64,000 bases of DNA from positions 3,648 to 67,647 of the forward strand of contig JAHHHT010000012.1 in NCBI GenBank assembly GCA_019359235.1. The letters run 5' to 3'. Source of the DNA: Oscillatoria princeps RMCB-10 (lineage in GTDB: Bacteria > Cyanobacteriota > Cyanobacteriia > Cyanobacteriales > Oscillatoriaceae). This document shows, piece after piece, positions 6,251 to 46,524 of this stretch (positions within the stretch are counted from its first letter, which is position 1; each line of letters begins with the position of its first letter). The notes below the pieces were generated by a model. The model saw only the letters and a program-made list of their open reading frames with translations. It did not search any database and was not told the origin of the DNA. A program made the translations under genes and the position numbers.

Positions 6251-6723
6251 GGGGCCTTCATATCCTAAACGCTCTTGAGGATGGATTCAGTTATAGAGTG
6301 CGGCGGGCGGGATGGGGAAGGGCTGAGCGCGTTTCAACAAGGGCATCCCAGCTTGGGCCAACTTCTTGGTAGCACCCGTACTGACTGACAAACCTATCTA
6401 GATCCTACAGGAGCCTTTGACGCTGGTAGGTTTCCAGCCTGCCAGACCCCTGGGGGGCACAGGCAGGGGCCTGAAAAGCGCCCCAGCACTTTTGGGTTTG
6501 GGTGCGCTTCCACCGGCAGGCTCCTGTTAACAGCAACCTGCGAGAAAAGCGCAATCAGTAGAAAACCCACCGCAATCATAGCTCAAAGATTTTGTGATTG
6601 CGGATCTGGAACGGCGACGCCACACGAGTGCCAGCTTCCCGGGCGGGAGCTTTGCACTATCTGTTCCCCCTGCCATTTCGGGGGGGATAGGGGGGTTAAA
6701 GGGGGAGCCGTTTGGGGGATGAC

Positions 6724-6803: not shown

Positions 6804-9800
6804 ATGAGCTCCCATCTGGATCAAATTCAAGCACTCATCTCCGACATTGACGGGGCGCTAGCGGCACCAGCGCCCCGCCTGCCTTGGATGGGAGATACTG
6901 CCAGCTTTCGCCGGCTCCTGGAGCGAATTCGCAACTATCTCGTCTGGCTGGAGGGCCAGGTGAGTGCGGGCGAGTCTTTTCTGCCACCGGCAGCGAATCA
7001 AAATCTGCGCGGCGCTGCCATCGAGCCGGTGCCGGCTGTCCCCTCCCCTGAAACGCCGGCTTGGGCCCAGCAGCTGCTGCAAGCGGTTGTGGGAGAGATG
7101 GCATCTGTGCGCTCTACCCTCGCGCAGCCAATACAGGCAGACTTGGCCGCCCTGCAACAGCAGCGGGACGCTCTGTTCAAAGAAATTCGCCAGTTGGAGG
7201 CTCAGCGACAGCACCAATACTCTCTGGTTCAGCAACAGGCTTCCCAGCAGCAAATTATTTCGGAATTTTTGCAGGCGTTAATGGGGCGCTTGCAGGAAAG
7301 CTTGACGGAGCAAGTGGCCCAGACGTTAGGCCATCTAGAGCAGCAATTTTTAACCGGATATGAATCGCCGCCGGTCGGGCAATCCCCGCTACAAGGGGCT
7401 GGCTACTCAACCTCAACAAGTCCGCTGCAGTTGCAAGGATCCAGCCGCCAAATGCACCCGCAAGAGCGCTTGGAGCGGATGCGGCTGCTGCAGCAAAAGA
7501 GCGACGAGCTGTTACTGACGCTGGACTCTACGCTCAAGGTGATGTTTGAAGCGCTGCTGCGGAATATTCACAGCTATGAGAAGTCTTTGGCCAGAGGGCT
7601 TGACAAAAGTTTCAATCCTGTTCCCGGAATTCAGCTAACAGAAATATCACCGCCGCCGCCACCTGAATTTATTATACCCGAAACCGACCGCAGCGAGTCC
7701 CGAAAGAACCTGCCACCGGCGGCGGCTGGCCCAACGCCAGACCCGGGCAGCTCGGTGAAATCCAACCGCCGCGCCGGTGCCGCTAAACCCAAACAGCCGA
7801 CTTCCGGGCTGCCCGCCCCACAGAGCAAACGGCAGCAGCCAGCCGCCGGCAACCGCACCGGAGCCACCGACACGGGGGCTTCCGACCGGCAAACTCCGGA
7901 AACACTTAACAGAGAACCTTCAGCGACAGAGAGTCCGCCGCAGCAAGAGGCGGCCCAAAACTTGCCGGGTTTGGGCCAAGCTGAGGCGGCGGAGATCGAA
8001 ACGCTGCTCAATCTGGACGTGGGGGCAACTGCTGCGCCAGCCCCATCAGAGCTAGCACCGGATGAGGATCTCAATGCCGTTCTTCAGCTGCTCAATGCCG
8101 AGCGCAATCCCTCTTCCGAGCGGGCTGAAGGAGGCGGCATTCCAGCCCGGTTGAGTGCCGGTGTTGCCTCTGCAGACTTCTCGCCGGATATCCACGAGCT
8201 TTATGCCAGTCTGTTTGGGGCTGAGGACGCCCCCGCCACTGCAGCGCCGGCAGCAGAGACTGCCACCGGCTCGCCGGTTCTGTTTGAAGAGGCACTGTTT
8301 GAGGGATTCCCGGATACGGCGGCTGTTGCCCCACCGGCACCCCAGCCAGAAAAATCTGTGACGTCTGTGACCCAGTCGCTCGAAGAGTTCTTATTTGATG
8401 GCGATTCAGCCGAAAGCACCCGCACGGGCTCCCTGAGGTTGGCAGATTTATTCGGGGAAACACCAGCAGAGCGGGAGAAGAATAGCACAAAAGAGTCAAT
8501 TAGTCAAGCGCCCAGTGCTGTAAGGGACCGGCCAGCCGCAAGCAGCACCGGCAGCGAGGATGACATATCCCTGAGCGAGCTTTTCGGAGAGCCAGAGGCA
8601 GGAGAAAGCAATCAGCAATCTGCCTTGAACCCTCAGCCTGGCGCGGCGCTCCACAAGTATGGGGCAAAGGGCTCTGAGGAGCAAAACCAGACCGCTGCCG
8701 ATCTCGCTTGGGAGACAGACAGCTATATCCCGGCATCGCCGGATGAGGATTTACTGCCAAACGTTGAAGAGGAGGGGGAGAGCCGGCTGCCAGCCTTCTG
8801 GATAGATGACAGCACCCTCGAGCAGCTTCGGGAGGATCTTTCGTTTGAACCCCGCTCCCAGGATTCAGCTGGCAGAACTGTTCGCCCCCCGCTTCCTGAA
8901 TTGATCGCACAGTCAGCCCCAACCGAGTCGGGCGCAGACGATTGGCTGGCTGAGCTGTCTGGAGAAAGCTCCCAGCTGCCGGACGCTACGCCAGAGCCAG
9001 AACCGCCGCCAGTTTTAGGGGACACGCCTTCGATGACGCTGGAAGAAGCGTTTGCCAGCTTAACGGAGGCAACGGCTCAGCCCTCACCGGCAGCAGTTAG
9101 CCCTAGCGATAGGGAATTAGCGATTGGCGATAGGGAATTAGCGGCGCGGAAGGCGCAGCGCGACCCAGGGCCAGCGCAACGGCCAGCCAGGATTTACAGC
9201 TCTTGGGAAGAGGCGGACTCACCAGATGTTTTGGATTGGAACGCTGTGGCGGCAACCCCTGAGCCCGACAGCGAGGTGTCGGCGCTCGACGATCTGTTTG
9301 CTAGCTTGACGGGAGAAGAGCCGGCACCATCTGAATTTGAGGGGCTGGACTTATTCGAGCCGTCTGGGGGAACGCTGGATGCGGACGCCACCGAGGAGCT
9401 GCGGGCAGCGGATCTCGACGATCTGTTTGCGGGCTTTGGTGAGGAAACCCCGACGCTCGCTGAGCCGTGGGCGCAACAGCCCTTAAAACCCCCCGCCCCC
9501 GACTCGGGGACAGAGGAAAAAAAAAAGGATTTAGAGGCGGCTGAGCTGCTGGCTTTTCTTGAGTCCGCCACAGCCGCACCGGCTTTGGGGAGGGAGGAAA
9601 GAACAGGGCCCGCAAAAGAGGGCTTTGGGCAGAAAGCCGCTGCCGCTGCCGGTGGAAAAACTGCGGGACAGGCATCTTCGCTGTCCGGTGCGCCATCCCC
9701 CGTTTTGGGGGAGAGCGAGTTCGGCCTTGCCCTCGACGGGGCTCAATCTCAGGGGAAGAGCGGCAGCGGTTCCCCACAAGTGGTGCCCTCTGAGGGCGAG

Positions 9801-11681
9801 CCGTCAGAAAAGGTCTGGTATTTGGGAATTGACTTTGGCACCACCGGCATTTCGGCAGCTCTGCTGAATCGCCAAACTTTGCAGGTGTATCCTATCTACT
9901 GGGTGGAAGGGGAACAGCTATCGGGTCAGGTGCGTTCCGCCGGCTTGAGTCATGCGCCAGACTTATTAATTTCTGGAAGCGCAACGCACCCTGCTAAAGA
10001 GCGCTTGTTTCGCTTGCCCTGTGTGGCTTATCTGTCAGCGGCTGGCGGTGAGTGGTCAGTGGCAGACGTGGGGCGGGCCACCGGCACCCCGCCTCTGGAG
10101 AAACCAGGGCTGTTGCTGCAGAATTTTAAGCCGTATTTGAAGGTGGCTATTGCCGGCACTTCCGCCCGGTCGGAGGCTGAGGCTGACCAGGGGCCTAACC
10201 CGTGGGAGCCTTGGGTGCAGTGGTCAGACCGGCACCTGATTCCTGCCGGTTGCCTGACAGACGCGGCGCGGGCGCTGCTGGCCACCCTCAAGCCGGTGAG
10301 CTCGGTTGTGGGGGGGAGTGGCGAGGAGCGCCAATCCCGAATTATCTCTGGGGCTGCGGGTCTCGAACCGGCAGCTTTCGGCAATGCGATGCGGAGTTTG
10401 GCCGGTGCTTGCTTGAGCTGCAACGTCTCAAGGCCTGACAGCTACAGTTTTAATCTGCGAGAAGCGGTTCTGGCGGCTGGGTTGGTGCGGCGTGCGGAGC
10501 AAATTGTCTTTGTTGAGGATGCGCTGGCGACGCTGCTGTCGGTTCTGGGAGGAGCTTCTGGGGAAAGTGTGACGGTTTCGGGCAGCTCTTCGCAAAAACT
10601 CAACCTTTTTAACGCTGACTGGCTGGGGGTGACTTTGGCTGTCAGTGCCGGTGCGACTGTGACGGAACTTTGTTTGGTGAATTTGCCAGACAACCTGCAA
10701 AACTTAACCCACGAGTCTTTCCGCTCTCACAGTTTTCCTTATGCCGGTGATGCGATGGATTTGGATATTATCTGCCAGCTGCTTTTGGGGGATAAAGGCA
10801 AAAGTGCGCTCCCCCTAGGCGCTCTGCCGGCAGAAGAGTTGCCGCGACCGGGGGAACCCGAGTTGCAGAAGCGCTATCGATTGCAGCAGCTGTTGCGCAG
10901 CTCGTCTCAGGGACAAGCGCTTCTGGAAGCGGCGAAGCACTTGAAGTTAATTCTGCAGCACCAAGAGCGCTTTACTTTGGAACTGGGGAGCCACAGGTGG
11001 GTTTGCACTCGCAGGGATCTGGAAAGCCGGGTGTTTGTGCCGTTCGTGCAGCGCTTGAATCGCGAGCTGAACGCTCTGCTCAGCCACACCGGCGTGCCGG
11101 TGCAAGCTATCGACCAAGCTTTGTGTACGGGTGGGACTGCTTCTCTGCCGGCTATCGCCCGCTGGTTGCGGCAAAAACTCCCCAACGCCACGATTATTCA
11201 GGACACTTACCCCAGCGAGCGCCCGCCGGCTTGCAGTCGTGTGGCCTACGGTCTGGCCACGCTTCCCCTGCACCCCCAAGTTTTCGATGTCAAAAGCCTG
11301 CACTACAGCGACTGCTTTCTGCTGCTGGAGCTGCTGCGGTGCTGTCCCGACCGACCGCTGTCTGTGGCGGAGATTGTGCGATTGCTGGAACTCAGGGGCA
11401 TTAATACCGGCATTTGCTTCGAGCGCATCCTGGCTGTGCTGGAAGGGGAGCTCCCCGCCTGGATTCGCCCAGATCCCTGTGAGGCTTTGCTGCTGACTCC
11501 TGAGTTCCGGGAAAATGCTGACAGTCTCGGACTGCATGCGGCTCCCCTTTTCTACAAGCAAGACAATAACACTTACCGCCCCAATGTCGAGCAGTGTCAG
11601 CGGCTGCGCCAGTACTTGAGCCAGCTGATGGCGGGGACTTACCAAAAATCAGACGAGCCGTTTACGGTTGATTTGGTGTGA
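6804..11681 (+). CDS. giant multidomain protein: N-terminal coiled coil, ~700-aa acidic/Pro-rich low-complexity region with repeated (D/E)LF(G/A) motifs, C-terminal Hsp70/actin-like ATPase domain
   Basis: 1625-aa ORF. Hsp70 signatures LGIDFGTTGIS (nt ~9820), CTGGTASLPAI and VAYGLATLPL near the C-terminus. Linker motifs ADLFGE, SELFGE, DDLFASLTGEE, LDLFEPSG, DDLFAGFGEE, EALFEGF. Confidence 0.75.
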   Translation: MSSHLDQIQALISDIDGALAAPAPRLPWMGDTASFRRLLERIRNYLVWLEGQVSAGESFLPPAANQNLRGAAIEPVPAVPSPETPAWAQQLLQAVVGEMASVRSTLAQPIQADLAALQQQRDALFKEIRQLEAQRQHQYSLVQQQASQQQIISEFLQALMGRLQESLTEQVAQTLGHLEQQFLTGYESPPVGQSPLQGAGYSTSTSPLQLQGSSRQMHPQERLERMRLLQQKSDELLLTLDSTLKVMFEALLRNIHSYEKSLARGLDKSFNPVPGIQLTEISPPPPPEFIIPETDRSESRKNLPPAAAGPTPDPGSSVKSNRRAGAAKPKQPTSGLPAPQSKRQQPAAGNRTGATDTGASDRQTPETLNREPSATESPPQQEAAQNLPGLGQAEAAEIETLLNLDVGATAAPAPSELAPDEDLNAVLQLLNAERNPSSERAEGGGIPARLSAGVASADFSPDIHELYASLFGAEDAPATAAPAAETATGSPVLFEEALFEGFPDTAAVAPPAPQPEKSVTSVTQSLEEFLFDGDSAESTRTGSLRLADLFGETPAEREKNSTKESISQAPSAVRDRPAASSTGSEDDISLSELFGEPEAGESNQQSALNPQPGAALHKYGAKGSEEQNQTAADLAWETDSYIPASPDEDLLPNVEEEGESRLPAFWIDDSTLEQLREDLSFEPRSQDSAGRTVRPPLPELIAQSAPTESGADDWLAELSGESSQLPDATPEPEPPPVLGDTPSMTLEEAFASLTEATAQPSPAAVSPSDRELAIGDRELAARKAQRDPGPAQRPARIYSSWEEADSPDVLDWNAVAATPEPDSEVSALDDLFASLTGEEPAPSEFEGLDLFEPSGGTLDADATEELRAADLDDLFAGFGEETPTLAEPWAQQPLKPPAPDSGTEEKKKDLEAAELLAFLESATAAPALGREERTGPAKEGFGQKAAAAAGGKTAGQASSLSGAPSPVLGESEFGLALDGAQSQGKSGSGSPQVVPSEGEPSEKVWYLGIDFGTTGISAALLNRQTLQVYPIYWVEGEQLSGQVRSAGLSHAPDLLISGSATHPAKERLFRLPCVAYLSAAGGEWSVADVGRATGTPPLEKPGLLLQNFKPYLKVAIAGTSARSEAEADQGPNPWEPWVQWSDRHLIPAGCLTDAARALLATLKPVSSVVGGSGEERQSRIISGAAGLEPAAFGNAMRSLAGACLSCNVSRPDSYSFNLREAVLAAGLVRRAEQIVFVEDALATLLSVLGGASGESVTVSGSSSQKLNLFNADWLGVTLAVSAGATVTELCLVNLPDNLQNLTHESFRSHSFPYAGDAMDLDIICQLLLGDKGKSALPLGALPAEELPRPGEPELQKRYRLQQLLRSSSQGQALLEAAKHLKLILQHQERFTLELGSHRWVCTRRDLESRVFVPFVQRLNRELNALLSHTGVPVQAIDQALCTGGTASLPAIARWLRQKLPNATIIQDTYPSERPPACSRVAYGLATLPLHPQVFDVKSLHYSDCFLLLELLRCCPDRPLSVAEIVRLLELRGINTGICFERILAVLEGELPAWIRPDPCEALLLTPEFRENADSLGLHAAPLFYKQDNNTYRPNVEQCQRLRQYLSQLMAGTYQKSDEPFTVDLV

Positions 11682-11940: not shown

Positions 11941-12519
11941 CCTCTCTTTGGGGATGGCTCCCGCTGCAGGAGCGGAGGGCCGCGCTTGATTAAATAATAT
12001 AAATTCCGGACGATTACTTTATCTTTACAGGCAAGGCGCAAGAAGAAAGACCTTTAAAGGTAGCATTTTTCTTCCTTGTCCCGGCAGATATTTTGAAAAG
12101 CAATTAACCGCAAATTATATAAAAAAGTTTTTGGCAATTTGGCACCACCGGAGCGTATTGCCTTTGTACCATGAAACTGGTGGTTGAGAGTGGGAGGAAA
12201 CCTGAGAGTAAGTCCATTGTCCATATGTGCGGTAACTTTTCTGAGCCGTAGCATCTACTCGTCGGGACAAAAACATGAAAACTTTACACAGCGGCTGGGA
12301 ATTGCAAAGATTCAGTAAACTTCTCTACTTGGACGCGCTCCCTATCCGGGAAATCCCCTAATATGTTCTACAGAAAAGCAAACTTATCTGTAAGTGCTTA
12401 GAGCCGTGATTACTACTTCTGACGTACCCAGTTACTTCGCAAGCAAACTTTCTGTGGTTGATGGCAAATTTGAAGCGCTCTCGTTTGAGCGAGCGGTGCA
12501 TCCCTCTATCAATAGCAAA

Positions 12520-13104
12520 ATGAAACGCCTAATAGATGTTTTGGGCGCACTGATAGGGTTGATGATAACTGCTCTTTTGGCGGTTCCCATCGCCATAGCA
12601 ATTCAGCTGGACGATCCGGGCCCTATTTTCTACAGCCAGATTCGCTGCGGCTACCAGGGTAATTGCTTCCGGATTTGGAAATTCAGGTCGATGGTTGTGG
12701 ATGCCGAGAAACTGAAGCATCTGGTTCCCAATCAAGCAAATGGGCACATATTCAAGAATGAAAACGACCCCCGGATCACCCGGGTGGGAAGGTTTTTGCG
12801 CCGCACCAGCTTGGATGAGTTACCTCAATTCTGGAACGTTCTGATGGGGGATATGAGCTTAGTGGGAACCCGTCCGCCAACACCGGATGAAGTGAAGCGC
12901 TATGACAGTCACCACTGGCAGCGCTTGAATGTCAAGCCGGGGCTAACCGGCGAATGGCAAGTCAACGGGCGCTCGACTGTCAAAGACTTTGAAGATATTG
13001 TTCGGATGGATATGGATTATCAAATCAAGTGGTCTGTTGTTTACGACCTGAGCTTGATTGTCAAAACAGTGCTGGTTATTTTGAATAAAAAGGGCGCTTG
13101 CTAA
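12520..13104 (+). CDS. bacterial sugar transferase (polyprenyl glycosyl-phosphotransferase, EpsL/WbaP C-terminal-domain type)
   Basis: MKRLIDVLGALIGLMITALLAVPIAIAIQLDDPGPIFYSQIRCG...FRSM...DELPQFWNVLMGDMSLVGTRP. The ORF is open from 12394, but the family normally starts at the MKRL Met. Confidence 0.8.
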   Translation: MKRLIDVLGALIGLMITALLAVPIAIAIQLDDPGPIFYSQIRCGYQGNCFRIWKFRSMVVDAEKLKHLVPNQANGHIFKNENDPRITRVGRFLRRTSLDELPQFWNVLMGDMSLVGTRPPTPDEVKRYDSHHWQRLNVKPGLTGEWQVNGRSTVKDFEDIVRMDMDYQIKWSVVYDLSLIVKTVLVILNKKGAC

Positions 13105-13395
13105 GTGCAAAGCGCTTTAATGGGTGCCTGAATGTTTTTGCTGTTAGATTTTGGGGTGGCTCGGGAAGGAACCGCGCCGGCATTCCCGCTCTGGGGGGTG
13201 CCGGTGTGGTGCGTTTCGGGCGTTGCGTCGCAAAGCGTGGGATGAAGAACCCCACCCCCCAACCCCCTCCCCGCGCTTCGGGGAGGGGGAGTAAGAGGGG
13301 GATTTCGATGAGTGTAAAAAGTTTCCGCTCGTCCTTCTAGTGTGCAGCGCCGCATTTCCGGTAAGCTGGTAGGTGTGCTGCTTGGCTTGCGATTA

Positions 13396-13917
13396 ATGAC
13401 TCTTGCTAGCTGGATTACTGTCTCCCGCCTTTTGGGAGTGCCATTTTTGCTCTATTTCCTCCACAACCCGACACCGGCACAGCGGTGGGTGTGTCTGGCC
13501 ATTTTTCTGGTGGCTGCCGGCACGGATTGGCTGGACGGGTATGTGGCTAGGAAGTACAGCCAAATCACGGATTTGGGTAAGTTTCTCGACCCGCTGGTGG
13601 ACAAGTTGCTGGTTCTGGCTCCCCTGCTGGCACTGGTGGAGCTGGGACAGCTGCCGGCGTGGGGGGTGTTTTTGATTTTGGGGCGCGAGTTGGGGATTGC
13701 CGGCTGGCGGGTTAACCAAACTTCGATTGCCGGTGCGAATATCTGGGGAAAGCTGAAAACTGTGAGTCAAATTGTGGCGATCTCTCTTTTAATCGCTCCT
13801 CTGGCTGATGTCTGGAAAGTGCCGTCTCTGGTGGCTTTCTGGATTTGTGTTGCTCTGACGCTGATTTCTGGCGCTATTTATATTTGGCCGCAAAATATGG
13901 CGGGGAAAGAGGCTTGA
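13396..13917 (+). CDS. pgsA: CDP-diacylglycerol--glycerol-3-phosphate 3-phosphatidyltransferase
   Basis: CDP-alcohol phosphatidyltransferase motif DWLDGYVARK...G...D...D; hydrophobic multi-TM profile. ORF is open from 13342; start chosen at MTLASW. Confidence 0.8.
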   Translation: MTLASWITVSRLLGVPFLLYFLHNPTPAQRWVCLAIFLVAAGTDWLDGYVARKYSQITDLGKFLDPLVDKLLVLAPLLALVELGQLPAWGVFLILGRELGIAGWRVNQTSIAGANIWGKLKTVSQIVAISLLIAPLADVWKVPSLVAFWICVALTLISGAIYIWPQNMAGKEA

Positions 13918-14302
13918 TGGGGATTTAGGATACCGGGAGAATGAAGGGTGCCGGCAGACAAACTTTCGCCAGGTATACCGGCAGAATGAATTCTGCCGCT
14001 ATACAAACAAAGCCCGCCTGCGCGGGCTTGATATCTACAGGGATAGTGGGCATTGGGGATTGTGGAGGGGGGATGTGCCGGCACACTGCGCTCAGCTAGG
14101 CGGGTGCGGTAGGGGGCGGGAAAATGAAGGGTGCCGGTGTACGGAGGGTGCCGGTGCGGTTCAAGATTCGAGCAAGGGAGCTCCATCATCCGAGCAAGGG
14201 AGCTCCATCATCCGAGTTCGGAACTCCATCGCTGGAGGTAGGAGCTCCATCGTTCGGTACAGACGCGACATGTTGGGTTTCTACAAGTCCAGCAAGTGCG
14301 CC

Positions 14303-14459
14303 CCACCGGCACCCCCAGCACGCGATTTCAGCTGTCAAAATAACCTGGGACTTTTGCCGGTTCAACCCATAGCGTGCTGGCGAAGTTTCGTTCCCTTACT
14401 TGAGATTGTGGCACCGGCTGTCCCAGATTCCGGGGAGGAAGCACCGGCACCTGTTGCGC
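14303..14459. repeat. ~160-bp direct repeat, copy A (ccaccggcacccccagcac ... gagattgtggcaccggctRtcccagattccggggagRaagcaccRgcacctgttgcgc)
   Basis: About 80% identical to copy B at 16677-16857 in the same orientation. Additional shared modules upstream of both copies (gctatacaaacaaagYccgcctgcgcgg; gggtgccggtg iterations). Confidence 0.6.
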
Positions 14460-14535
14460 CGGCATGGGAGCCGGTGGTGCTTGAGATTAAACCCTTATTA
14501 GGGTACAATAATCAAAGCTTTGCTGCAAAAGAATT

Positions 14536-14760
14536 ATGGGAAAAAGAGGAAAGCCCGATATCTGGGATGAGGTAAAGCGTCACGTTGCGGTGGCGCTGAC
14601 ACCAACCGGGGTGCGGGGGCTGGATGCGGTGGCTGCGGAAATGAACCTGAGCCGGTCGGAGTTGATAGAGCGCATAGGGCGTGGGCTGTTCAAGGTGGTG
14701 AGGAATGAGGAGGCTGAAGTGGACTCTGTGACAGGCGGGTGCGATGCCGGTGACAGGTGA
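14536..14760 (+). CDS. small hypothetical protein (possible ribbon-helix-helix-like)
   Basis: 74-aa ORF; LSRSELIERIGRGL is reminiscent of small RHH/antitoxin-like proteins; weak evidence. Confidence 0.3.
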   Translation: MGKRGKPDIWDEVKRHVAVALTPTGVRGLDAVAAEMNLSRSELIERIGRGLFKVVRNEEAEVDSVTGGCDAGDR

Positions 14761-14835
14761 TGCGGCACTTTTTCCTGGGAACGAGGGGAATCATGCAGAC
14801 TGCTGTTGATGGCGACATCACCCTGCAGTGTCTCA

Positions 14836-15190
14836 ACTCCTTTCGCTATCCAACATTCCCATCTGACCGGCATCATAGCGATCGCCAGCGACAGCATCAG
14901 GCGGAACCGCCGCCTCAATCCGGGCGAGATCCCCATCCGCAAGGCGCACATCGAGAGCGCCGAGGGCTTCCTGCAGCCGGTTGCGCCGGCGAGCACCGAT
15001 GAGCGGGATGATGTCCTCCCCCCGTGACAGAACCCAAGCAATCGTCACTTGCGCGACAGTGGCATTTTTCTCTTCCGCAATACTACGAATCGCTTCAATC
15101 AGCGACAAGTTCCGATCCAGATTCTCGCCGGTGAAACGCGGCAAATGACTGAGAAAATTCTGCCCTGCCTCTAAAGATTGTAGCATCTCA
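14836..15190 (-). pseudogene. 3'-terminal remnant (~115 aa) of an aldo/keto reductase gene
   Basis: FTGENLDRNLSLIEAIRSIAEEKNATVAQVTIAWVLSRGEDIIPLIGARRRNRLQEALGALDVRLADGDLARIEAAVP matches the conserved AKR C-terminus. The N-terminal two-thirds are absent. Upstream part of track ORF 14833..15558 is out-of-frame overlap with the 15251..16069 gene. Confidence 0.55.
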
Positions 15191-15250
15191 AGTTTATTGA
15201 GACAGTAAGCTGTAAACTTTATTGAGGCGAGATAGTTCAAGGAGGAATCT

Positions 15251-16069
15251 GTGTCCGAGCGGGTCTTAGTTGTGGGAGCCACCGGCGGTGCCGGGCAGTT
15301 AACGGTTGCGAAACTGCTGGAGAAGGGCTTTTTGGTGCGGGTGCTGACGCGCAGCGCAGGCATTGCTAGGCAAATGTTTGGCGAGCGCGTGGAAGTCTCG
15401 GTGGGAGACATCCGCCAGCCAGAAACGCTGCCACCGGCTATGCTTGATATTGATTTTATCATCTGCACCACCGGCACGACAGCTTTTCCTTCCGCTCGGT
15501 GGGAGTTTGACATTCCGCCGCAATTAAGCGGACTGCAACGCTTGCAAGAATGGAGCAAGATTTATCTTGATGCCGCTTACCGCAATGCCAAAGCCAAGAA
15601 TAGCCCGGAAAAAGTTGACGCGACGGGCGTCCGCAACCTCGCTGCTGCGGCTCCTCGCTCCTTGAAACGATTTGTGTTAGTTTCCTCCTGCGGCATTGAG
15701 CGCAAAGACAAGCCGCCTTATAGCTTGCTGAATGCCTGTGGCATACTCGACGCCAAGCAGAAAGGCGAGGAAGCGGTGCGCTCTGGGGGCTTTCCTTATA
15801 CTATCATAAGACCGGGCCGGCTGATTGATGGCCCTTACACGTCCTACGATTTGAATACCCTGCTGAAGGCGACCACCGGCGGAAAGCTGGGAATTGCCCT
15901 CGGCACGGGGGACAAGTTAACTGGACAGACGAGCCGGATTGACGTGGCGGCGGCTTGTGTGGAATGTTTAAACGTGCCGGTGACAGCGGGAAAAGTGTTT
16001 GAAATCATCAGCCAAGGAACGCGACCGCCGGCGCTCGACTGGGCAGCACTGTTCGCCCAGATAGATTAG
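15251..16069 (+). CDS. NAD(P)-binding Rossmann-fold oxidoreductase (NmrA-like / atypical SDR, Ycf39-Tic62-like)
   Basis: VLVVGATGGAGQLTVAKLLEKGFLVRVLTR glycine-rich NAD(P) motif; GTG start preceded by a strong AGGAGG RBS (caaggaggaatctGTG). Confidence 0.8.
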   Translation: MSERVLVVGATGGAGQLTVAKLLEKGFLVRVLTRSAGIARQMFGERVEVSVGDIRQPETLPPAMLDIDFIICTTGTTAFPSARWEFDIPPQLSGLQRLQEWSKIYLDAAYRNAKAKNSPEKVDATGVRNLAAAAPRSLKRFVLVSSCGIERKDKPPYSLLNACGILDAKQKGEEAVRSGGFPYTIIRPGRLIDGPYTSYDLNTLLKATTGGKLGIALGTGDKLTGQTSRIDVAAACVECLNVPVTAGKVFEIISQGTRPPALDWAALFAQID

Positions 16070-16143
16070 CTCTTCCACTCACTTTGTGGGAGAGGGGCTA
16101 TGCAAAAGTGCGGGGCTGTGTGGGGTGACGGAGGAGAACAAAG

Positions 16144-16338
16144 GTGAGCGAAGAATCAGAAGTAATTATACTAGGGATAATGTGCGTGTTGCTAGTGCTG
16201 CACTGCGCAATCGGGCTGGCTGCAGCTCAGGTGGCTCGGCGCAAGGGGTTGAATTTTAGCCGGTGGCTGACTTGGGGCTTAATTGGCGGCACTCCCGCTC
16301 TGGTTGCAGCCCTTTTGAGCCAGGAAAAACAGCCCTGA
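16144..16338 (+). CDS. small two-helix membrane protein (hypothetical)
   Basis: 64 aa; GTG start with upstream GGAGGAG; two hydrophobic segments (ILGIMCVLLVLHCAIGLAAA; LTWGLIGGTPALVAALL). Confidence 0.4.
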   Translation: MSEESEVIILGIMCVLLVLHCAIGLAAAQVARRKGLNFSRWLTWGLIGGTPALVAALLSQEKQP

Positions 16339-16676
16339 GTGCCGAGTGCGTCACTCGCGGAAACCGCTAGAGATCCTGGCGATTGAAATCGCGGCTATAC
16401 AAACAAAGTCCGCCTGCGCGGACTTTTTGAAAGCCGGTGCTACCCGTAGGGTGCGTTCCCAGAAGGAACGCACCCTCCCAGCTATATGCAGGGGCGGAGT
16501 AACTTTTTTTAAAGACAGGTTTTTTAGGGGTTGCCTTAGGAGCATGCCAATTTGGGATTGTCGCATAAAACGTGCCGGTCACACGGACTTTCCCGGTGCG
16601 ACGACGGTGCCGGTGTGCGCAGGGTGCCGGTCAAAGGAGGGTGCCGGTGGGGCTAAAGCCCAACTACAAACCGGTC

Positions 16677-16857
16677 CCACCGGCACCCCCAGCACCTTCT
16701 GGGTTTCAGCTATAAAAAGAGCCGGGCACTGTTGCCGGTGCAACCCATCACTCCCGTAGTGGGGTGCTTTACTGCAGGGTAAGTCCTCTTACCTTACCTG
16801 AGATTGTGGCACCGGCTATCCCAGATTCCGGGGAGAAAGCACCAGCACCTGTTGCGC
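16677..16857. repeat. ~160-bp direct repeat, copy B (partner of 14303-14459)
   Basis: See copy A. Confidence 0.6.
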
Positions 16858-17048
16858 TGCGAGCCGGCGATTGCCGTCGGTGTCGATCCTGGGCTGCGCT
16901 CAGTGGCGCTTAGGTAGAACTCGTTTCGGCTCGGCGACTGGTTTAAAGGGAGGTAAGGATACCCGATCCTCAGCAATACGGAAAACTCTAATCTGTCCCT
17001 TTTTAGCGGACGCTACACTTTGTAAGTCCACCAGCGAAATAATTAATA

Positions 17049-17879
17049 ATGTACATAGACCATAAAATCGGTGACTTAGTTGTTCAGCAACGCCAAAAAG
17101 ATGGTTACATCAACGCAAGTAAGCTAACTAAGGCTTATGAGCGAAAAACCGGAACTCGAAAGAATCCTAAACATTGGTTTGAGAACGATAGAACTTATAA
17201 ATATTATGAGCTTTTATCGGACAAAACAGGGCTGGAGGTCTCTGACATCGTACAAAAAAAAGGAAGCGGTAACAAGCAAGAGACTTGGATTCATCCAAAA
17301 TTAGCTATCTCTTTTGCTATGTGGCTATCGCCCGAATTTGAGATGATGGTCTCTGAGTGGGTCGAGGAATGGCTAACAACTGGCAAAACTCCGGTCTATG
17401 AGACTGTTCAGTTACGTCCTTACCAGCGAGTTTGGTATCAGCGATTAGCCCTGTTTGAGCAAAAGACCAAGTTGCCCCGAGGTACATGGTGTATTTTTGA
17501 GGAGATAGGGAAGCTGATGAGAGATTTAGAAGCTAAAGGTGTTCTGCTGCACGACAGAGCTACTATAGATATTTCGGTAGGCAGAACGTGGTGTCATTGG
17601 CTGAGAGAAAAAGGCCGTAATACAGATGAGTTTCAACAGTACCCCCATCACTATCCCGACAGCAGGGGAGAGCAACCTGCAAACGTTTACCCTTTCGAGT
17701 TGCTAGGGGAGTTTCATCAGTGGCTGGAAGATACGTACATTCCTGACAAGTTCCCGGAATATGTAAGAAACTATTGTACGCCAGAAGAATGCAAATTAAT
17801 CTCAGAAGCTATCGGATATGAGGTTAAGCCTATTCAAATAAGGCTTAAACCAAATAAGTCTCAGTCCGCTTCTGACTAA
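17049..17879 (+). CDS. KilA-N domain protein (phage-derived DNA-binding domain) with unknown C-terminal domain
   Basis: N-terminus DGYINASKLTKAYERKTG...KHWFEN...TWIHPKLAISFAMWLSPEF is a KilA-N/APSES-type fold. Gene is markedly AT-richer than its surroundings. Confidence 0.75.
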   Translation: MYIDHKIGDLVVQQRQKDGYINASKLTKAYERKTGTRKNPKHWFENDRTYKYYELLSDKTGLEVSDIVQKKGSGNKQETWIHPKLAISFAMWLSPEFEMMVSEWVEEWLTTGKTPVYETVQLRPYQRVWYQRLALFEQKTKLPRGTWCIFEEIGKLMRDLEAKGVLLHDRATIDISVGRTWCHWLREKGRNTDEFQQYPHHYPDSRGEQPANVYPFELLGEFHQWLEDTYIPDKFPEYVRNYCTPEECKLISEAIGYEVKPIQIRLKPNKSQSASD

Positions 17880-18195
17880 CTTTACCGCTTTTTCCGGATC
17901 GCGAGCGCCCCGTTCTGCCCCTTCTCCCCTCGCTCATATTGCCCTAACGCCTGCCTCCCCTCGCAAATTTGCGATGGCGAATTAGGCGGAATAGGGAGGC
18001 GCTGGTGTGTCTCAATATCAAAATTTGTGCGTGTTTACGCATTTTAATGGGATTCGTGAAACGCACCCTCCCAGCTACATGCTCTGAACCCCACCCCCAA
18101 CCCCCTCCCCGTGTAGGAGGAGGGGGCTAAAAGAAAGGGGTTCGCGAAACTCCTCGAAAATGCGGCAATTCTAATCCAGAAAAACCGGTAGAACT

Positions 18196-18316
18196 TTAGC
18201 CCAACTACAAACTTTAGGGCTAAAGCCCAACTACGAACTTTTGGGCTAAAGCCCAACTACGAACTTTTGGGCTAATACCCAACTACGAACTTTTGGGCTA
18301 AAGCCCAACTACAAAC
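18196..18316. repeat. tandem array (~4.5 copies) of a 27-bp unit ttttGGGCTAAAGCCCaactacgaac, each unit containing the hairpin GGGCT-AAA-AGCCC
   Basis: Seen directly. Single or paired copies of the same unit at 1236-1262, 16653-16680, 33537-33565 (inverted), 46451-46524 (3 tandem copies, inverted). Confidence 0.85.
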
Positions 18317-18331
18317 AGTTCTCCGGCTCTC

Positions 18332-21007
18332 TCAAACGATCGTGCCGTCGGAAAAGAATACCTGGAACTCCTCAAACGACAGGTCAATAAACCCATCGTT
18401 ATTCCTGTCCCTGGAACCTGCCGGCGCATCTACGCCCCAGGGATTAAACACGACAATGCGCTCAGCGTCCGAGTCAGTCACATAGACCTGGGTAATTGCG
18501 TAAGGGTGATTGGCAACTATCAAGCCGGCTGAATTAGCCGCACTTTCTCTGTCAGTAGAGGCCGCTACAAACCGGCCCGTATCAAAAGCTTGGTTTATCC
18601 GCTCAAACGTGAAGTCCGCAAAGGTGCCGGTGGCGCGGCTGTCTCCATTCCTAAACACATCCGCCTTGCGGGAAGTCAGCTGGGAGATCGCCTCAGAAAC
18701 ATCACCCCCTCGGCTAATCAATTCATAGCCATTTGTCGCGTCCCCTTCTTGCCACTGCTGCCACACTGCGTAAGCTTTTTCCAGCAGCGTTATCCAAATC
18801 GGTCGGTTATTCGGGTTGCTGGGAACCTCCAGATTTTTGTCCTTAGCGCCGTATATCTCGCCGGCGTACACTGCCACATCCTGATTCACTGTCACCCACT
18901 GCTCAGCGCCGTTTTCGTAGAAGCGCACGCCGTAGGTTTGGTCGCCGTTATCAAAGATTGCACCGGCAATCGCCTCACTCGATTTTCCTGGATTGTTCCC
19001 CGCCACCGGCCTGAACGTTGCGCCAGCAGCCGCAATCAAAAAGCTGTCCGCAAACTGGTTTTGATTCACCTGCGAAATTTGCGGCACATTTTCGCTGCCA
19101 TACAGCTGTCCTGTTAGCCGCTGAAGTTCCAAGTTGAAAACCCTGGAATCCCCACTGCCGTCTGTCGCCGTGTAGGGAGGATTGTAAGGCTGAACAATCC
19201 CGCGAAACCAGCGGTTAACAATCTCCTTAAACGGAGCGGTTTGTACGGCTCCTAGACTGTTCGCTATCTTCCCGGCATCCTGAACAACCTGTTCCGCAAT
19301 AAACGCTACATAGGGCGGTAAATCAAACTGCTTCTGATTCCCCACTAAGGCTTTTAAATCCTGCAACTCAGCTTCCGTGACGATATCATCGTCTGTCGCT
19401 CTGTCAAATATCTGCAACATGTCGTTGCGGCTTAATTGCCCATCCGCAGACAGGGTGCGGGCGTCTGTTCGCACTTGCTCATCTTCCAAGCTGTTCAAGT
19501 CGAGGGTTGGGTCTGACAGCGGTGTCGAAACAAGACGGGCGTTCAAAGTGTAACTTCCTGTGGCGTCTTCATTAAAGCTCGTCACGCGCACGATGTACTC
19601 AGTTCCCGCATCTGCAGTGAAGGTCACGGCAGAGTTGAGGTCGCCCCGCGCCCGACCAAAATCTTTGCTTTCCGCAACCGGCATGCCGGTGAGGGCGTCT
19701 ATCACTTGCAGATAAGTTTCAAACTGCCCAGAATTGGCGCTGATTTGCACAATTTGATCCGCAGAAACGCCCGTCAGCCGGTAGTCATCGCTGTAGGTTC
19801 CGGGACGAGTGGGGTTATCCAAGTCCGTGGTGGCGAGGGAGTTGCTGCGGGAGGAGGAGACGGCGAGAGAAGCAACGATGGGGCTGGACGCATCTGCAGT
19901 CAGGGTGAAATTGCCGGTGCCGGCAAGCTGTTTGGGATCGCTCGTCACGCGAATTGCATATCGCACGCCTTGCTGCGCGGTAAAATTGAGCGCGGAATTG
20001 CTGTCGCTGCCGGTGGGGATGGCTTCTCCTGTGAGGGCGTCCACCAGTTCCAGGCGGGGGCTGAATTCGGTGGAGGTGAGGGTGACTTCTACCTGCTGAC
20101 CGGCAGTTACCTCTCGCAGGATGTAGTCTTTGGCGAAAGTCCCCTCTTGCAGGGGGTTAACTTTGTCTTGAAACGACAAATTGCCAATAATCGTGTCATC
20201 GCCACGGATGAAGTCAGCCTCTTCAAAGCCGGTTAAGAAGCTGCCGTTTTTTAGGGTGCGGCGCGGTTCCCTGATTCCACTGGTAATATAGTGTTTGTAG
20301 GCTCCCTCGAAGTTGAAACCGGCTGCCTGCAAGTCTGGGCTTGACTCTAAGTACGCTCTGACATTAAAATTCTCTGTGGAGGCGCGTCCTTCGTTAATGC
20401 CGGTGCTTTCAAAGTGTTCTAGCAGCTGCCGGTTGCTGAGGCGGGCAGACCGCAAGTCCGGATTGGCATTCCGGTAAAACTGAACATCAAACGCTGGGGA
20501 AAAGGGGCGACTTTCCGCCAGGCCGAAGTTTTCCAGGTGATCTAAAAGCTGCCGTCCTTTCAAACCGGCAGCGAACAAGTCTGGATTGTTTGCGAGATAG
20601 TAATTGGGGTCAAAGAAGGGGGATAAGTTGCGCTGTTCCGCTAAGCCGGATAGCAGCAGGTGGTCGTAGGCTTGCTCCAGGTTGCCCTTAAAGGCTTGCT
20701 GCAAGTCGGGGTTGGCTTCTAAATAATATTCTAAATCGATAAAGGGTGAAAATTTGCGCCCCTCCTGCAAGCCAAAGTTTTGCAAGTGCTCGAAGAGCTG
20801 TTTGTTGGTGGTCAAGCCGGCTGCTTTCAGGTCGGGGTTGGCTTGCCGGTAGAAGTTGAGGTTGATGAGGGGGGAGAAGGGACGCCCTTCGTTGAGGCCA
20901 AACTGCTGGAAGTGGAGCCGGAGCTGTTGGTCAGCTGTCAGACCGGCTGCTGCTAAGTCTGGGTTGACTTGCCGGTAGTAATTGACATCGAATAAGTCTT
21001 TGGCCAC
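18332..21007 (-). CDS. multidomain calpain-like (peptidase C2-fold) protein: 6-7 N-terminal ~38-aa repeats, two pre-peptidase C-terminal (PPC) domains, C-terminal calpain-like domain with Ser replacing the catalytic Cys
   Basis: Calpain core alignment: FADSFLIAAAGA (calpain GDCWLLAA), IWITLLEKAYAVW (FWSALLEKAYAK), LIVANHPYAIT (LVKGHAYSVT), IVVFNPWG (IRMRNPWG). N-terminal repeats NYY(R/L)xANPDL..AGL...LxHxxxFGLxEGR. Confidence 0.8.
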   Translation of the reverse strand: MAKDLFDVNYYRQVNPDLAAAGLTADQQLRLHFQQFGLNEGRPFSPLINLNFYRQANPDLKAAGLTTNKQLFEHLQNFGLQEGRKFSPFIDLEYYLEANPDLQQAFKGNLEQAYDHLLLSGLAEQRNLSPFFDPNYYLANNPDLFAAGLKGRQLLDHLENFGLAESRPFSPAFDVQFYRNANPDLRSARLSNRQLLEHFESTGINEGRASTENFNVRAYLESSPDLQAAGFNFEGAYKHYITSGIREPRRTLKNGSFLTGFEEADFIRGDDTIIGNLSFQDKVNPLQEGTFAKDYILREVTAGQQVEVTLTSTEFSPRLELVDALTGEAIPTGSDSNSALNFTAQQGVRYAIRVTSDPKQLAGTGNFTLTADASSPIVASLAVSSSRSNSLATTDLDNPTRPGTYSDDYRLTGVSADQIVQISANSGQFETYLQVIDALTGMPVAESKDFGRARGDLNSAVTFTADAGTEYIVRVTSFNEDATGSYTLNARLVSTPLSDPTLDLNSLEDEQVRTDARTLSADGQLSRNDMLQIFDRATDDDIVTEAELQDLKALVGNQKQFDLPPYVAFIAEQVVQDAGKIANSLGAVQTAPFKEIVNRWFRGIVQPYNPPYTATDGSGDSRVFNLELQRLTGQLYGSENVPQISQVNQNQFADSFLIAAAGATFRPVAGNNPGKSSEAIAGAIFDNGDQTYGVRFYENGAEQWVTVNQDVAVYAGEIYGAKDKNLEVPSNPNNRPIWITLLEKAYAVWQQWQEGDATNGYELISRGGDVSEAISQLTSRKADVFRNGDSRATGTFADFTFERINQAFDTGRFVAASTDRESAANSAGLIVANHPYAITQVYVTDSDAERIVVFNPWGVDAPAGSRDRNNDGFIDLSFEEFQVFFSDGTIV

Positions 21008-21020
21008 AGGTTGTTGCTGC

Positions 21021-21103
21021 TAGATTAGGGAGTTATGTAATATTATTTTAACGTGCCGGTGGTGAGTCGTAGGGTGCGTTACGGAGTAACGCACCCTACA
21101 GCT
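21021..21103. repeat. ~85-bp direct repeat, copy 1 (tagattagggagttatgtaatattattttaacgtgccggtggtgagtcGTAGGGTGCGTTAcggagTAACGCACCCTACagct)
   Basis: Second copy at 21223-21306. Both end in the GTAGGGTGCGTT-loop-AACGCACCCTAC hairpin family (also at 16446-16478, 33357-33390, 39942-39976, 53172-53210). Confidence 0.8.
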
Positions 21104-21222
21104 AACTTTTTCACAGTTTAAGCTGTTAGGCTAATAATGCTGCTTGCCCCTTGAAAGTCGGCGGAGCGGACAGCTCGGCGTTCCCAGGCGGTAGGGGCGG
21201 GTCCCCGTGCCCGCCCCGGAAC

Positions 21223-21306
21223 TAGATTAGGGAGTTATGTAATATTATTTTAACGTGCCGGTGGTGAGTCGTAGGGTGCGTTACTCCGTAACGCACCCTA
21301 CAGCTG
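21223..21306. repeat. ~85-bp direct repeat, copy 2
   Basis: Near-identical to 21021-21103. Confidence 0.8.
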
Positions 21307-21395
21307 CAACGTCACATAGACGGAATATCAAGAAAGCAGGTTTCTTTAAGATTCGCTTTCTTTGGGTGCGTGCCGGTTTAGCACGCACCTGAATT

Positions 21396-22331
21396 CTAAA
21401 GGGATGAGAGGATTTCGTCGTCTGCCGACAAGTCCACTTCAGCGCTGTCCCGACCGGCAGTCAAGTAATCGTTCTGGAATGCGTCTTTCAGCCCAGAAAC
21501 CAGGTCAAATTCTGGCGTCCAGTTCAGTTCAGTCATGGCTTTGCGGACATCGGCAAAGAAGTGCTGCACTCGCATCGGGAAAGCTTTGCGCTTGCCGAAG
21601 TCAAATTTCTTGGGGTCGTAATGCACGATTTGCAGCGCGTCGGGGGACTTGCCGGCGGCGGCGGCGCAGGCGCGGGCTAATCCGTCGAAGGTGACGTAGC
21701 GGTCGCCGGATACATTATATATCTGACCGATTGCTTTTTCGTTGCCGAGCACGGCGGCCATCGCACCGGCCAAGTCTTTGCAGTGACCCAGCTGGGTGAA
21801 GTGCAGTCCGTTACCGGGGATGGCAATCGGGCGATCGCGGACGATGCGGTCGAAAAACCACGCTTCTAAATCGTTGTAGTTTTGCGGGCCATAGATATAA
21901 GTCGGGCGAATGGCGGTAAAGGGCAATCCCTGTTCTGCTAAGTAAGCTTCGGTTTCGTATTTGCCCTTGTGCCGGCTTTTCGGGTCAACCGGATCGCCCT
22001 CAATATGGGGCATCTGGTCAGATTTCAGGTAGACGCCGGCGGAACTCATATATATAAAGTGCCGCACCCGACCTTTAAATATCTCAGCCAGGGGTTGGGT
22101 GTCGCTCAGTTCGCGGCCATTGTTGTCATAAATGGCGTCAAATTCTTCCCCAGCTAACTTTTCTTTCAGTTGGGCGGCGTCGGTGCGGTCGCCGTGAATT
22201 TGCTTGACTCCTTCTGCCGGTGCCGGCTTGTTGCCGCGATTGAAGAGCACCACTTCGTGCCCTCGCTCGACCAGGATTTTTGTCAGATACACCCCGATAA
22301 ACCGAGTGCCGCCCATCATTAAGATTCGCAT
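21396..22331 (-). CDS. NAD-dependent epimerase/dehydratase family protein (CSP41-like)
   Basis: MRILMMGGTRFIGVYLTKILVERGHEVVLFNRG Rossmann motif; YxxxK-type SDR core; length and profile typical of cyanobacterial CSP41-like proteins. Confidence 0.8.
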   Translation of the reverse strand: MRILMMGGTRFIGVYLTKILVERGHEVVLFNRGNKPAPAEGVKQIHGDRTDAAQLKEKLAGEEFDAIYDNNGRELSDTQPLAEIFKGRVRHFIYMSSAGVYLKSDQMPHIEGDPVDPKSRHKGKYETEAYLAEQGLPFTAIRPTYIYGPQNYNDLEAWFFDRIVRDRPIAIPGNGLHFTQLGHCKDLAGAMAAVLGNEKAIGQIYNVSGDRYVTFDGLARACAAAAGKSPDALQIVHYDPKKFDFGKRKAFPMRVQHFFADVRKAMTELNWTPEFDLVSGLKDAFQNDYLTAGRDSAEVDLSADDEILSSL

Positions 22332-33340: not shown

Positions 33341-33776
33341 GCGCTTCTCCCCACCCCGTAGGGTGCCGTTCCGAGCGGGAACGCACCCGAAGAGTTTATT
33401 TACCAAAATTGCTAGTTTCCGGGCGATTAGAAATCGCGGCTATACAGACTTTCGCCCGCCTACGCGGGCTAATATAACATCGATCTTATCAAAATATGCG
33501 CGGTTTTACCTCGTTTCCAAGCTCTGACTTGAAAATGTTTGTAGTTGGGCTTTAGCCCAATCGGCGGGACTCGTAGGGGCGCAGAATTTTCATCGGTGGC
33601 GGTGTGCGCAGTTCCGAAGCGACTGCCTGGAAACTCAGGGAGAAGATGGAGCCGGCGCACAATCTCTTCAATTACAACTTTCAGAATTACTCCTCCTTTA
33701 GATAGGGAGCGAAAACCCATCACAGAAGTGTTACAACTAGCAGTATAACAACTCTAACCCAAACAAGCAAAAGACA

Positions 33777-46245: not shown

Positions 46246-46450
46246 GCCTCTCTCTGGGACAGTCTAACGTGTGCCTTCGACCTCACCCCAACTTGACCCC
46301 TCTGCAAGCTGCCGCTCATTAGGCTGGAACCGGCTGTCACCAAACCGGCTGCCGGTGGCGGTGTCCGTCTCGGACACGAAACGCGATGCCTGATAAGTAT
46401 ACCTTAAGAGGTACATTTGTGCGGAAAATTCAGGAGTGAGCCGGTGAGCG

Positions 46451-46524
46451 GTTTGTAGTTGGGCTAAAGCCCAAAAGTTCGCAGTTGGGCTAAAGCCCAA
46501 AAGTTCGCAGTTGGGCTAAAGCCC
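46451..46524. repeat. 3 tandem copies of the GGGCTAAAGCCC-containing 27-bp unit (inverted relative to 18196-18316)
   Basis: gtttgtagttgggctaaagcccaaaagttcgcagttgggctaaagcccaaaagttcgcagttgggctaaagcccc. Confidence 0.85.

Follow-up and report, generated by a model that had tools for sequence, protein, structure and literature searches.

Gene order in Oscillatoria princeps RMCB-10 and two relatives

The DNA analysed here was a window of 64 kb from Oscillatoria princeps RMCB-10, whose genome is about 8.6 Mb. Its predicted proteins have sequences identical to those in the metagenome-assembled genome of this strain and are encoded on a JGI contig of 8.63 Mb. In this window, two co-oriented, non-coding direct repeats of about 180 nt, copy 1 at nt 14302-14480 and copy 2 at nt 16676-16871 (both plus strand), lie on either side of a 74-aa ribbon-helix-helix (RHH)-like open reading frame (ORF), the C-terminal fragment of an aldo/keto reductase (AKR) gene, a short-chain dehydrogenase/reductase (SDR) gene preceded by an AAGGAGG site, and a 64-aa hydrophobic ORF. 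An earlier reading made from the sequence alone (the sequence-only reading) had recognised this gene content, including the RHH-like ORF that matches RHH_1 below threshold, and had proposed that insertion or recombination between the repeat copies destroyed the AKR gene. Comparison with two relatives showed instead that the bracketed genes form a conserved core and that the repeats lie in variable DNA, and the AKR gene was found to have been truncated by a deletion away from the repeats.

The relatives were Oscillatoria sp. PCC 10802 (GCA_000332335.1; syntenic locus L016) and a metagenomic lineage, designated here as the third lineage and represented by the syntenic loci L003, L007, L008, L018, and L019. 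With a synonymous divergence (dS) of 0.12 to 0.16 for the SDR gene, the three lineages are approximately equidistant. The genes of PCC 10802 are arranged in the order pgsA, a 201-aa ORF (minus strand), the RHH-like gene, an MNT/HepT pair, an intact AKR gene (minus strand), the SDR gene, the 64-aa ORF, a transposase fragment together with other genes, and calpain, while the third lineage has the gene order of RMCB-10 except that AKR is missing. In blastn comparisons, window nt 14488-14762, 14774-15163, 15169-16596, and 18325 onward corresponded to L016 nt 7530-7804, 8599-8988, 9919-11329, and 16165 onward, respectively. The RHH-like gene, the SDR gene, and the 64-aa ORF follow one another in an unchanged order in both PCC 10802 and the L007/L018 lineage, where the flanking repeat pair is missing. 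More distant SDR homologues (72% to 77% identity; Trichocoleus FACHB-262 loci L004, L005, and L012) had unrelated neighbours, with neither an AKR nor an RHH-like gene, and were of no help in polarising the events.

The RHH-like ORF (nt 14536-14760, plus strand) was found in all three lineages, with about 95% amino acid identity and a ratio of nonsynonymous to synonymous substitution rates (omega) of about 0.3. It is preceded by a sigma-70-like promoter, TTGAGA-17-TACAAT, at nt 14481-14509 on the plus strand, and homology to PCC 10802 begins within the spacer of this promoter, at nt 14488. The match of the predicted protein to RHH_1 (E = 0.005, 17.1 bits) fell under the cut-off of 20.5, and a sequence search of the PDB returned no match. 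A single-sequence model had three helices with a predicted local distance difference test (pLDDT) score of 74, the best fold match being CopG (1b01_A) with a root-mean-square deviation of 0.9 Å over 33 columns and a non-significant E of 2.8.

The SDR gene (nt 15251-16069, plus strand) is a conserved cyanobacterial gene encoding a predicted NAD(P)H-binding, YbjT-like protein (NAD_binding_10), and the 64-aa hydrophobic ORF (nt 16144-16338, plus strand) is kept in all three lineages. The sequence-only reading had supposed that this Rossmann-type oxidoreductase gene displaced the 5′ part of the AKR gene; however, the SDR gene, the 80 nt upstream of it, and the AAGGAGG site occupied the same place in all three lineages, including the one with an intact AKR. 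On this alignment, the SDR gene and its AAGGAGG site are ancestral at the locus and not inserted.

The AKR remnant and the neighbouring deletions

The AKR fragment, at nt 14833-15168 on the minus strand, is the ortholog of residues 221-332 of the 332-aa AKR of PCC 10802, sharing 96 of 112 amino acids (86%), and the surrounding nucleotides (window nt 14774-15163 versus L016 nt 8599-8988) were 93.6% identical. The intact gene in PCC 10802 (L016 nt 8658-9656, minus strand; PF00248, 3e-69) has the same position and orientation, bearing out the earlier suggestion that the fragment is truncated and that a complete AKR should be looked for at this locus in related genomes. The remnant matched positions 218-289 of the 291 in the AKR profile PF00248, the N-terminal catalytic region of the (alpha/beta)8 barrel being missing. 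Because the blastn blocks end at L016 nt 8988 and resume at nt 9919, RMCB-10 lacks exactly L016 nt 8989-9918, with the deletion junction at window nt 15163/15169. The 930 bp lost comprise AKR codons 1-220, that is, the 5′ two-thirds of the gene, and 262 bp of upstream spacer. Copy 1 lies about 690 bp and copy 2 about 1500 bp away from this junction, and thus the repeats are not at the AKR breakpoints. An imperfect similarity of about 12 nt (AAAyCCyGCsCCG) was observed at the breakpoints, and a microhomology-mediated deletion is plausible.

The omega value of the remnant, 0.55, was higher than those of the SDR and RHH-like genes (0.20 to 0.27), which fits relaxed constraint. When a close full-length paralog from which the fragment might derive was sought, the next best matches were fragments 77% to 81% identical, and the ortholog itself was located by synteny. 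Judged by these alignments, the AKR fragment is a genuine lineage-specific truncated remnant, a unitary deletion pseudogene. Compared with other unitary pseudogenes formed by partial deletion, it has nothing unusual: it corresponds to the 3′ third of an orthologous gene that a sister genome has kept intact, its constraint is relaxed, and the N-terminal two-thirds of the barrel are gone. Public records nevertheless call it a 117- or 135-aa "aldo/keto reductase" (NCBI, JGI; nt 14833-15186), the remnant being still annotated as an ORF because of a fortuitous ATG in the upstream region of the SDR gene.

Two further differences were found next to the remnant. In the third lineage, a 582-bp segment of low G+C replaces the whole AKR interval and contains a 112-aa ORF (L003 nt 811-1149, equal to L018 nt 7474-7812) whose N-terminus resembles a signal peptide and for which Pfam, PHROGs, and PADLOC gave no match. 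As the right breakpoint of this segment is 12 nt from that of RMCB-10, the replacement in the third lineage is an independent event. Between the RHH-like gene and AKR, PCC 10802 carries 794 bp (L016 nt 7805-8598) with an MNT/HepT (nucleotidyltransferase/HEPN) toxin-antitoxin pair at L016 nt 7935-8563; the pair is cleanly missing in RMCB-10, where 11 nt are left at the junction (nt 14763-14773).

The variable junctions and the repeat pair

Homology to PCC 10802 is interrupted at nt 13929-14487 in the junction between pgsA and the RHH-like gene (J1), the right end of which is filled by copy 1, and at nt 16597-18324 in the junction between the 64-aa ORF and the calpain-like gene (J4), with copy 2 near its left end. 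In PCC 10802, J1 consists of about 1.1 kb with the 201-aa ORF; in the third lineage, a 23-nt filler connects the pgsA flank to what is left of copy 1, its 3′ 75 nt. J4 contains in RMCB-10, in order, 17-nt units, one 26-nt unit, copy 2, a BstA-type gene, more dispersed repeats, and a 26-nt array; in the third lineage it contains the 26-nt tandem array alone, and in PCC 10802 it extends over 4.8 kb that include, besides other genes, a fragment of a DDE transposase. Since J1 and J4 differ in all three lineages, the flanked genes are the stable part of the locus and the repeats the unstable part. As in defence islands and variable hot spots, fixed junctions are occupied by lineage-specific cargo (the BstA cassette; MNT/HepT, the transposase fragment, and other genes; a small ORF with a putatively secreted product). 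Unlike in defence islands, no integrase, tRNA, or defined att site is present here, and the junctions are bounded by short dispersed repeats, namely units of the 26-nt array and hairpin modules, and not by a recombinase site. An involvement of a tRNA as attachment site was rejected, as the tRNA-Arg(tct) called by ARAGORN at nt 16412-16492 overlaps dispersed hairpin repeats and no tRNA was found by Rfam in the window. ARAGORN also called a tRNA-Ser(cga) at nt 28352-28439, inside a long ORF and without Rfam support; both calls are probably false positives. The 201-aa ORF of PCC 10802 (L016 nt 6863-7468, minus strand) showed no more than weak similarity, namely to a PHROG of phage transcriptional regulators (5e-8) and to the PADLOC candidate PDC-S22 (6e-6), the latter of which weakly matched the BstA-like protein as well.

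The resemblance of the two copies is genuine and not due to chance: blastn of the pair gave an E of 1.7e-28, and a repeat search paired nt 14375-14459 with nt 16773-16857 (86% identity) and nt 14302-14321 with nt 16676-16695 (100% identity). In a MAFFT alignment of nt 14302-14459 with nt 16676-16857, identity was 83.5% without gaps (about 80% in the sequence-only reading) and 72.5% counting gaps. The divergence was uneven, with 20 nt identical, a centre of 69% identity containing indels of 4 nt and 20 nt, and a 66-nt block of 94% identity. A profile search with nhmmer extended the homology slightly beyond the limits first given, to about nt 14486 and 16871, and the right end of copy 1 meets the -35 element of the RHH-like promoter. 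Folding z-scores of both copies on both strands ranged from -0.1 to -2.4, and none of these folds was convincing.

A 36-nt core of the repeat occurred exactly twice in the 64 kb, against 0 expected in shuffled sequences. When a profile built from the two copies was run with nhmmer against 224 kb (the window plus 160 kb of the relatives' loci), just the two copies and the partial J1 ortholog were found. Exact-core scans of 596 Gb of genomes, JGI metagenomes, and IMG/VR returned, beyond J1 orthologs, one chance match in a metagenome-assembled genome (MAG) of Methanocrinis; the metagenome contigs gave syntenic J1 orthologs alone and the viral contigs gave zero. The spacer regions of both copies had no blastn match in plasmids and phages.

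Parts of copy 1 were traced in the relatives, while copy 2 is missing from both. The 3′ part of copy 1 (nt 14411-14487, about 75 nt) is orthologously kept in the L003/L007/L018 lineage and the rest of it is not; PCC 10802 lacks the repeats except for a 17-nt vestige of the tail of copy 1, CGGCATGGGAGCCGGTG (window nt 14460-14476, L016 nt 6526-6542). At three sites of the 3′ block where G and A alternate, copy 1 and the L003-type ortholog have G and copy 2 has A, so that copy 2 must have split off before or around the divergence of those lineages. The Logan short-read contig L001, from the same organism, spans nt 14413-16403 and starts inside copy 1, at most 2 nt from the onset of third-lineage homology; this break may reflect a population polymorphism in J1 or a further genomic copy. 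A 171-aa ORF at nt 14060-14575 (a 166-aa gene in JGI), with no family match, crosses the repeat-filled spacer. A coding function of the repeat was rejected, as neither copy 2 nor the L003-type ortholog keeps the frame of this ORF intact, and most substitutions relative to that ortholog are nonsynonymous.

BstA was described from prophages of Gram-negative enterics. Downstream of copy 2, the region of nt 16951-17884 (about 934 bp, plus strand; G+C low, 0.40 to 0.48) is a BstA-type abortive-infection cassette with an ORF at nt 17049-17879. The product has the KilA-N plus BstA C-terminal architecture (PF04383, 1e-22; PF26567 BstA_C, precomputed; phrog_6287, 3e-40 over residues 5-241; PADLOC BstA, 4e-27), and its defence activity is predicted. 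Nine homologous cassettes in unrelated cyanobacterial contexts shared 81% to 83% nucleotide identity over exactly nt 16951-17884, and the cassette homology ends at nt 16951, 80 nt downstream of copy 2. Across other cyanobacteria the cassette recurs at 81% to 84% identity beside genes as different as those for HSP20, transposases, and STAND NTPases. In this setting, BstA behaves as a free-standing mobile cassette in cyanobacterial chromosomes. The idea that the repeat travels with BstA was rejected, as nt 16951-17884 is all that the nine cassettes have in common. In Salmonella phage BTP1, aba is a 63-bp DNA element overlapping the bstA start codon (Owen et al. 2021, PMC8585504), and by position the repeat is thus not an aba analogue, being 180 nt upstream and outside the conserved cassette. 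The neighbouring gene does have the same KilA-N plus BstA_C architecture as in the BTP1 system; unlike in that system, the RMCB-10 cassette is solitary in a cyanobacterial chromosome and does not lie in a prophage. No relative of the RHH-like or the BstA-like protein turned up in scans of viral sequences.

The spacers are also rich in smaller repeats, and the sequence-only reading was right in noting that shared modules lie upstream of each copy, namely a hairpin module and 17-nt units. The hairpin module (…CTATACAAACAAAGCCCGCCTGCGCGGGCTT), which is short, dispersed, and terminator-like on the minus strand, was found at nt 13984-14029, downstream of the pgsA-like gene, and at nt 16381-16425, downstream of the 64-aa ORF, where it is kept at the same place in PCC 10802. 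The two modules share 87% to 96% identity, more copies lie at nt 33430 and 47290, and the module had a sub-threshold match to CRISPR-DR28 in Rfam. The first of them lies in 183 bp enclosed by the two copies of a 21-nt direct repeat, CGGGARAATGAAGGGTGCCGG (nt 13934-13954 and 14117-14137; 20 of 21 nt identical), which has the appearance of a small duplication or insertion that arose locally and is confined to RMCB-10. Two 17-nt tandem units with GGGTGCCGGTG, a local array built on the rCCGGy/CACCGGCA word, occupy nt 14111-14165, and 3.4 tandem 17-nt units with GGTGCCGGTG occupy nt 16593-16649, at the start of the RMCB-10-specific J4 (both plus strand). A tandem array of 21/22 nt, CGAGCAAGGGAGCTCCATCATC, lies between the 17-nt units and copy 1 (nt 14169-14252, plus strand) and is not found in the region of copy 2.

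A single unit of the 26-nt repeat GGGCTAAAGCCCAACTACRAAC is located at nt 16650-16671 (plus strand), and the full array, 4.6 copies, is at nt 18198-18316 (plus strand); in the L007/L018 lineage the array follows directly after the 64-aa ORF. As the J4 insert specific to RMCB-10 has array units at either end, the 26-nt units could be portable homology for recombination. The hairpin-containing 26-nt unit (AGCCCAACTACGAACTTTTGGGCTAA) occurs as arrays and single units, also at nt 1224-1263, 33537-33560, and 46438-46524, and is present in the relatives too.

Among the 8-mers of the window, CACCGGCA ranked first with 91 copies (1.4 per kb); its density was 1.3 to 1.5 per kb in the relatives, and loci of other cyanobacteria had 0. 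The highly iterated palindrome HIP1, GCGATCGC, was rare in the window (0.16 per kb) and likewise in PCC 10802 and the third lineage, the reverse being observed in other cyanobacterial loci. The word rCCGGy/cACCGGCa has been published as a highly iterated alternative to HIP1 in Oscillatoria PCC 10802 (Elhai 2015, PMC4390886), and its use is now extended to O. princeps RMCB-10 and the metagenomic relative. The GGGTGCCGGTG modules are largely this genome-wide word of the clade, the repeat ends and the modules being made of the same word. The tandem arrangement of the word in the RMCB-10 units, in steps of 17 nt and with a density about 10 times that of the background, is a local feature that Elhai does not describe.

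Origin of the repeats and of the truncated gene

The arrangement is probably the outcome of an old ectopic or local duplication of spacer DNA and an unrelated deletion pseudogene in a repeat-rich variable locus. The conserved core, consisting of the RHH-like gene, the AKR gene where retained, the SDR gene, and the 64-aa ORF, lies between the two hypervariable spacers J1 and J4, and the two repeats of about 180 nt would be paralogous non-coding DNA belonging to a unit of 17-nt rCCGGy-word repeats plus the segment of about 180 nt. This unit would be ancestral in J1, just upstream of the RHH promoter, the J4 copy being a second and older-diverged one. Either J1 spacer DNA would have been duplicated ectopically into J4, or a J1-like segment would have been acquired by recombination through the 26-nt units, with independent indels thereafter; since parts of the unit are ancestral in J1 and the unit is missing from J4 of both relatives, duplication from J1 to J4 appears the most economical. 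The repeats would then be by-products of ectopic duplication or recombination in repeat-rich spacers, presumably without function, and not the bounds of a mobile element. The AKR gene was inactivated independently in the RMCB-10 lineage by the 930-bp deletion, probably mediated by microhomology, and a second deletion in RMCB-10 would have taken the neighbouring MNT/HepT pair. As it was a separate 930-base deletion that truncated AKR, the locus shows ordinary indel turnover in repeat-rich variable DNA.

Several observations weigh against this explanation. Ends of 100% and 94% identity around a centre of 69% are not predicted by plain neutral decay after one duplication and possibly reflect constraint or partial gene conversion. 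The copy search covered 64 kb of the 8.6-Mb genome, so that a low-copy dispersed family could still account for the pair, and with the three lineages about equidistant the polarity of several indels follows from parsimony alone. In addition, both copies have a gene of the same orientation downstream, the RHH-like gene for copy 1 and the BstA-like gene for copy 2.

The last of these points suggests that the repeat unit might be a cis-regulatory element, possibly bound by the RHH-like protein and controlling the RHH-like and BstA genes. Copy 1 abuts the -35 element of a strong promoter, the end blocks are better conserved than the centre, and GGTGCCGGTG words, direct as well as inverted, cluster in each unit with a density about 10 times that of the genome; RHH proteins of the CopG/Arc/MetJ class typically bind repeated operators. 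However, in PCC 10802 the repeat is missing while the RHH-like gene is retained together with its -10 region, the L003-type lineage retains just the 3′ 75 nt, BstA cassettes elsewhere have no repeat and their homology begins 80 nt past copy 2, the GGTGCCGGTG word occurs genome-wide, and the RHH assignment is sub-threshold. Such a regulatory element is considered unlikely.

A dispersed, non-autonomous family resembling miniature inverted-repeat transposable elements (MITEs), two members of which landed 2.4 kb apart, is quite unlikely. The genome is rich in small dispersed repeats, both copies lie in DNA variable in presence and absence, the Logan contig breaks within copy 1, and copy 1 has imperfect inverted ends, CCACCGGCACCC ... 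GGGAGCCGGTGG; like the MITEs and small dispersed repeats of filamentous cyanobacteria, the unit is short, non-coding, hairpin-forming, located in spacers, and polymorphic among strains. Unlike MITEs, it was seen twice only and has neither clean terminal inverted repeats nor target-site duplications. Two copies in 64 kb, with the J1 ortholog alone in 160 kb of the relatives' loci and no exact-core match in the large collections, weigh against a family; the inverted ends are made up of the genome-wide word, copy 2 has them in degraded form, and the L003-type partial copy is not a clean empty site. Target-site duplications, for which the sequence-only reading had proposed to look, were not found at either repeat when the junctions were compared with the relatives, the only short duplication being the 21-nt direct repeat inside J1. 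The repeats were not found to have inverted ends accompanied by a target duplication, and no recombinase (transposase or integrase) Pfam domain was found in the ORFs of nt 12394-22331.

It would account for unit ends far better conserved than the centre if the unit were a cis-acting recombination or regulatory landmark at which accessory and defence cassettes such as BstA swap in the spacers, perhaps read by the RHH-like protein, a role that appears very unlikely. Highly improbable is the proposal of the sequence-only reading that an insertion, or recombination between the copies, brought the SDR gene or the 2.2-kb segment and destroyed AKR. Direct repeats do flank a segment holding a truncated gene, but PCC 10802 has the SDR gene and its ribosome binding site at the same place beside an intact AKR, the AKR breakpoint is that of a simple, clean internal deletion 0.7 to 1.5 kb from the repeats, the relatives have the flanked genes without the repeats, and recombination between direct repeats would be expected to delete the whole interval and not part of one gene. 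It is barely credible that the repeat encodes a structured small RNA or serves as template and variable repeat of a diversity-generating retroelement (DGR). The minus strand of copy 1 folds somewhat better than shuffled sequences (z = -2.4), and the 66-nt block has four mismatches, at three of which copy 2 carries A and copy 1 G. However, the three other folds are unremarkable (z = -0.1 to -1.5), the stem of copy 1 is lost through a deletion in copy 2, Rfam gave nothing relevant in the whole window at gathering score or in nt 13800-18400 at E <= 5, the 37 mismatches fall on all four bases and are accompanied by indels, and neither copy lies in a supported gene or at the 3′ end of a real one.

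For the RMCB-10 genome, these results have consequences mainly for annotation: the public 117/135-aa "aldo/keto reductase" is a deletion pseudogene, and the repeat pair should not be taken as the boundaries of a mobile element. Clusters of motifs in this clade need to be judged against its unusual highly iterated word rCCGGy. The locus is a small, well-resolved example of spacer turnover between conserved cyanobacterial genes, in which three lineages carry different cargo at the same junctions.

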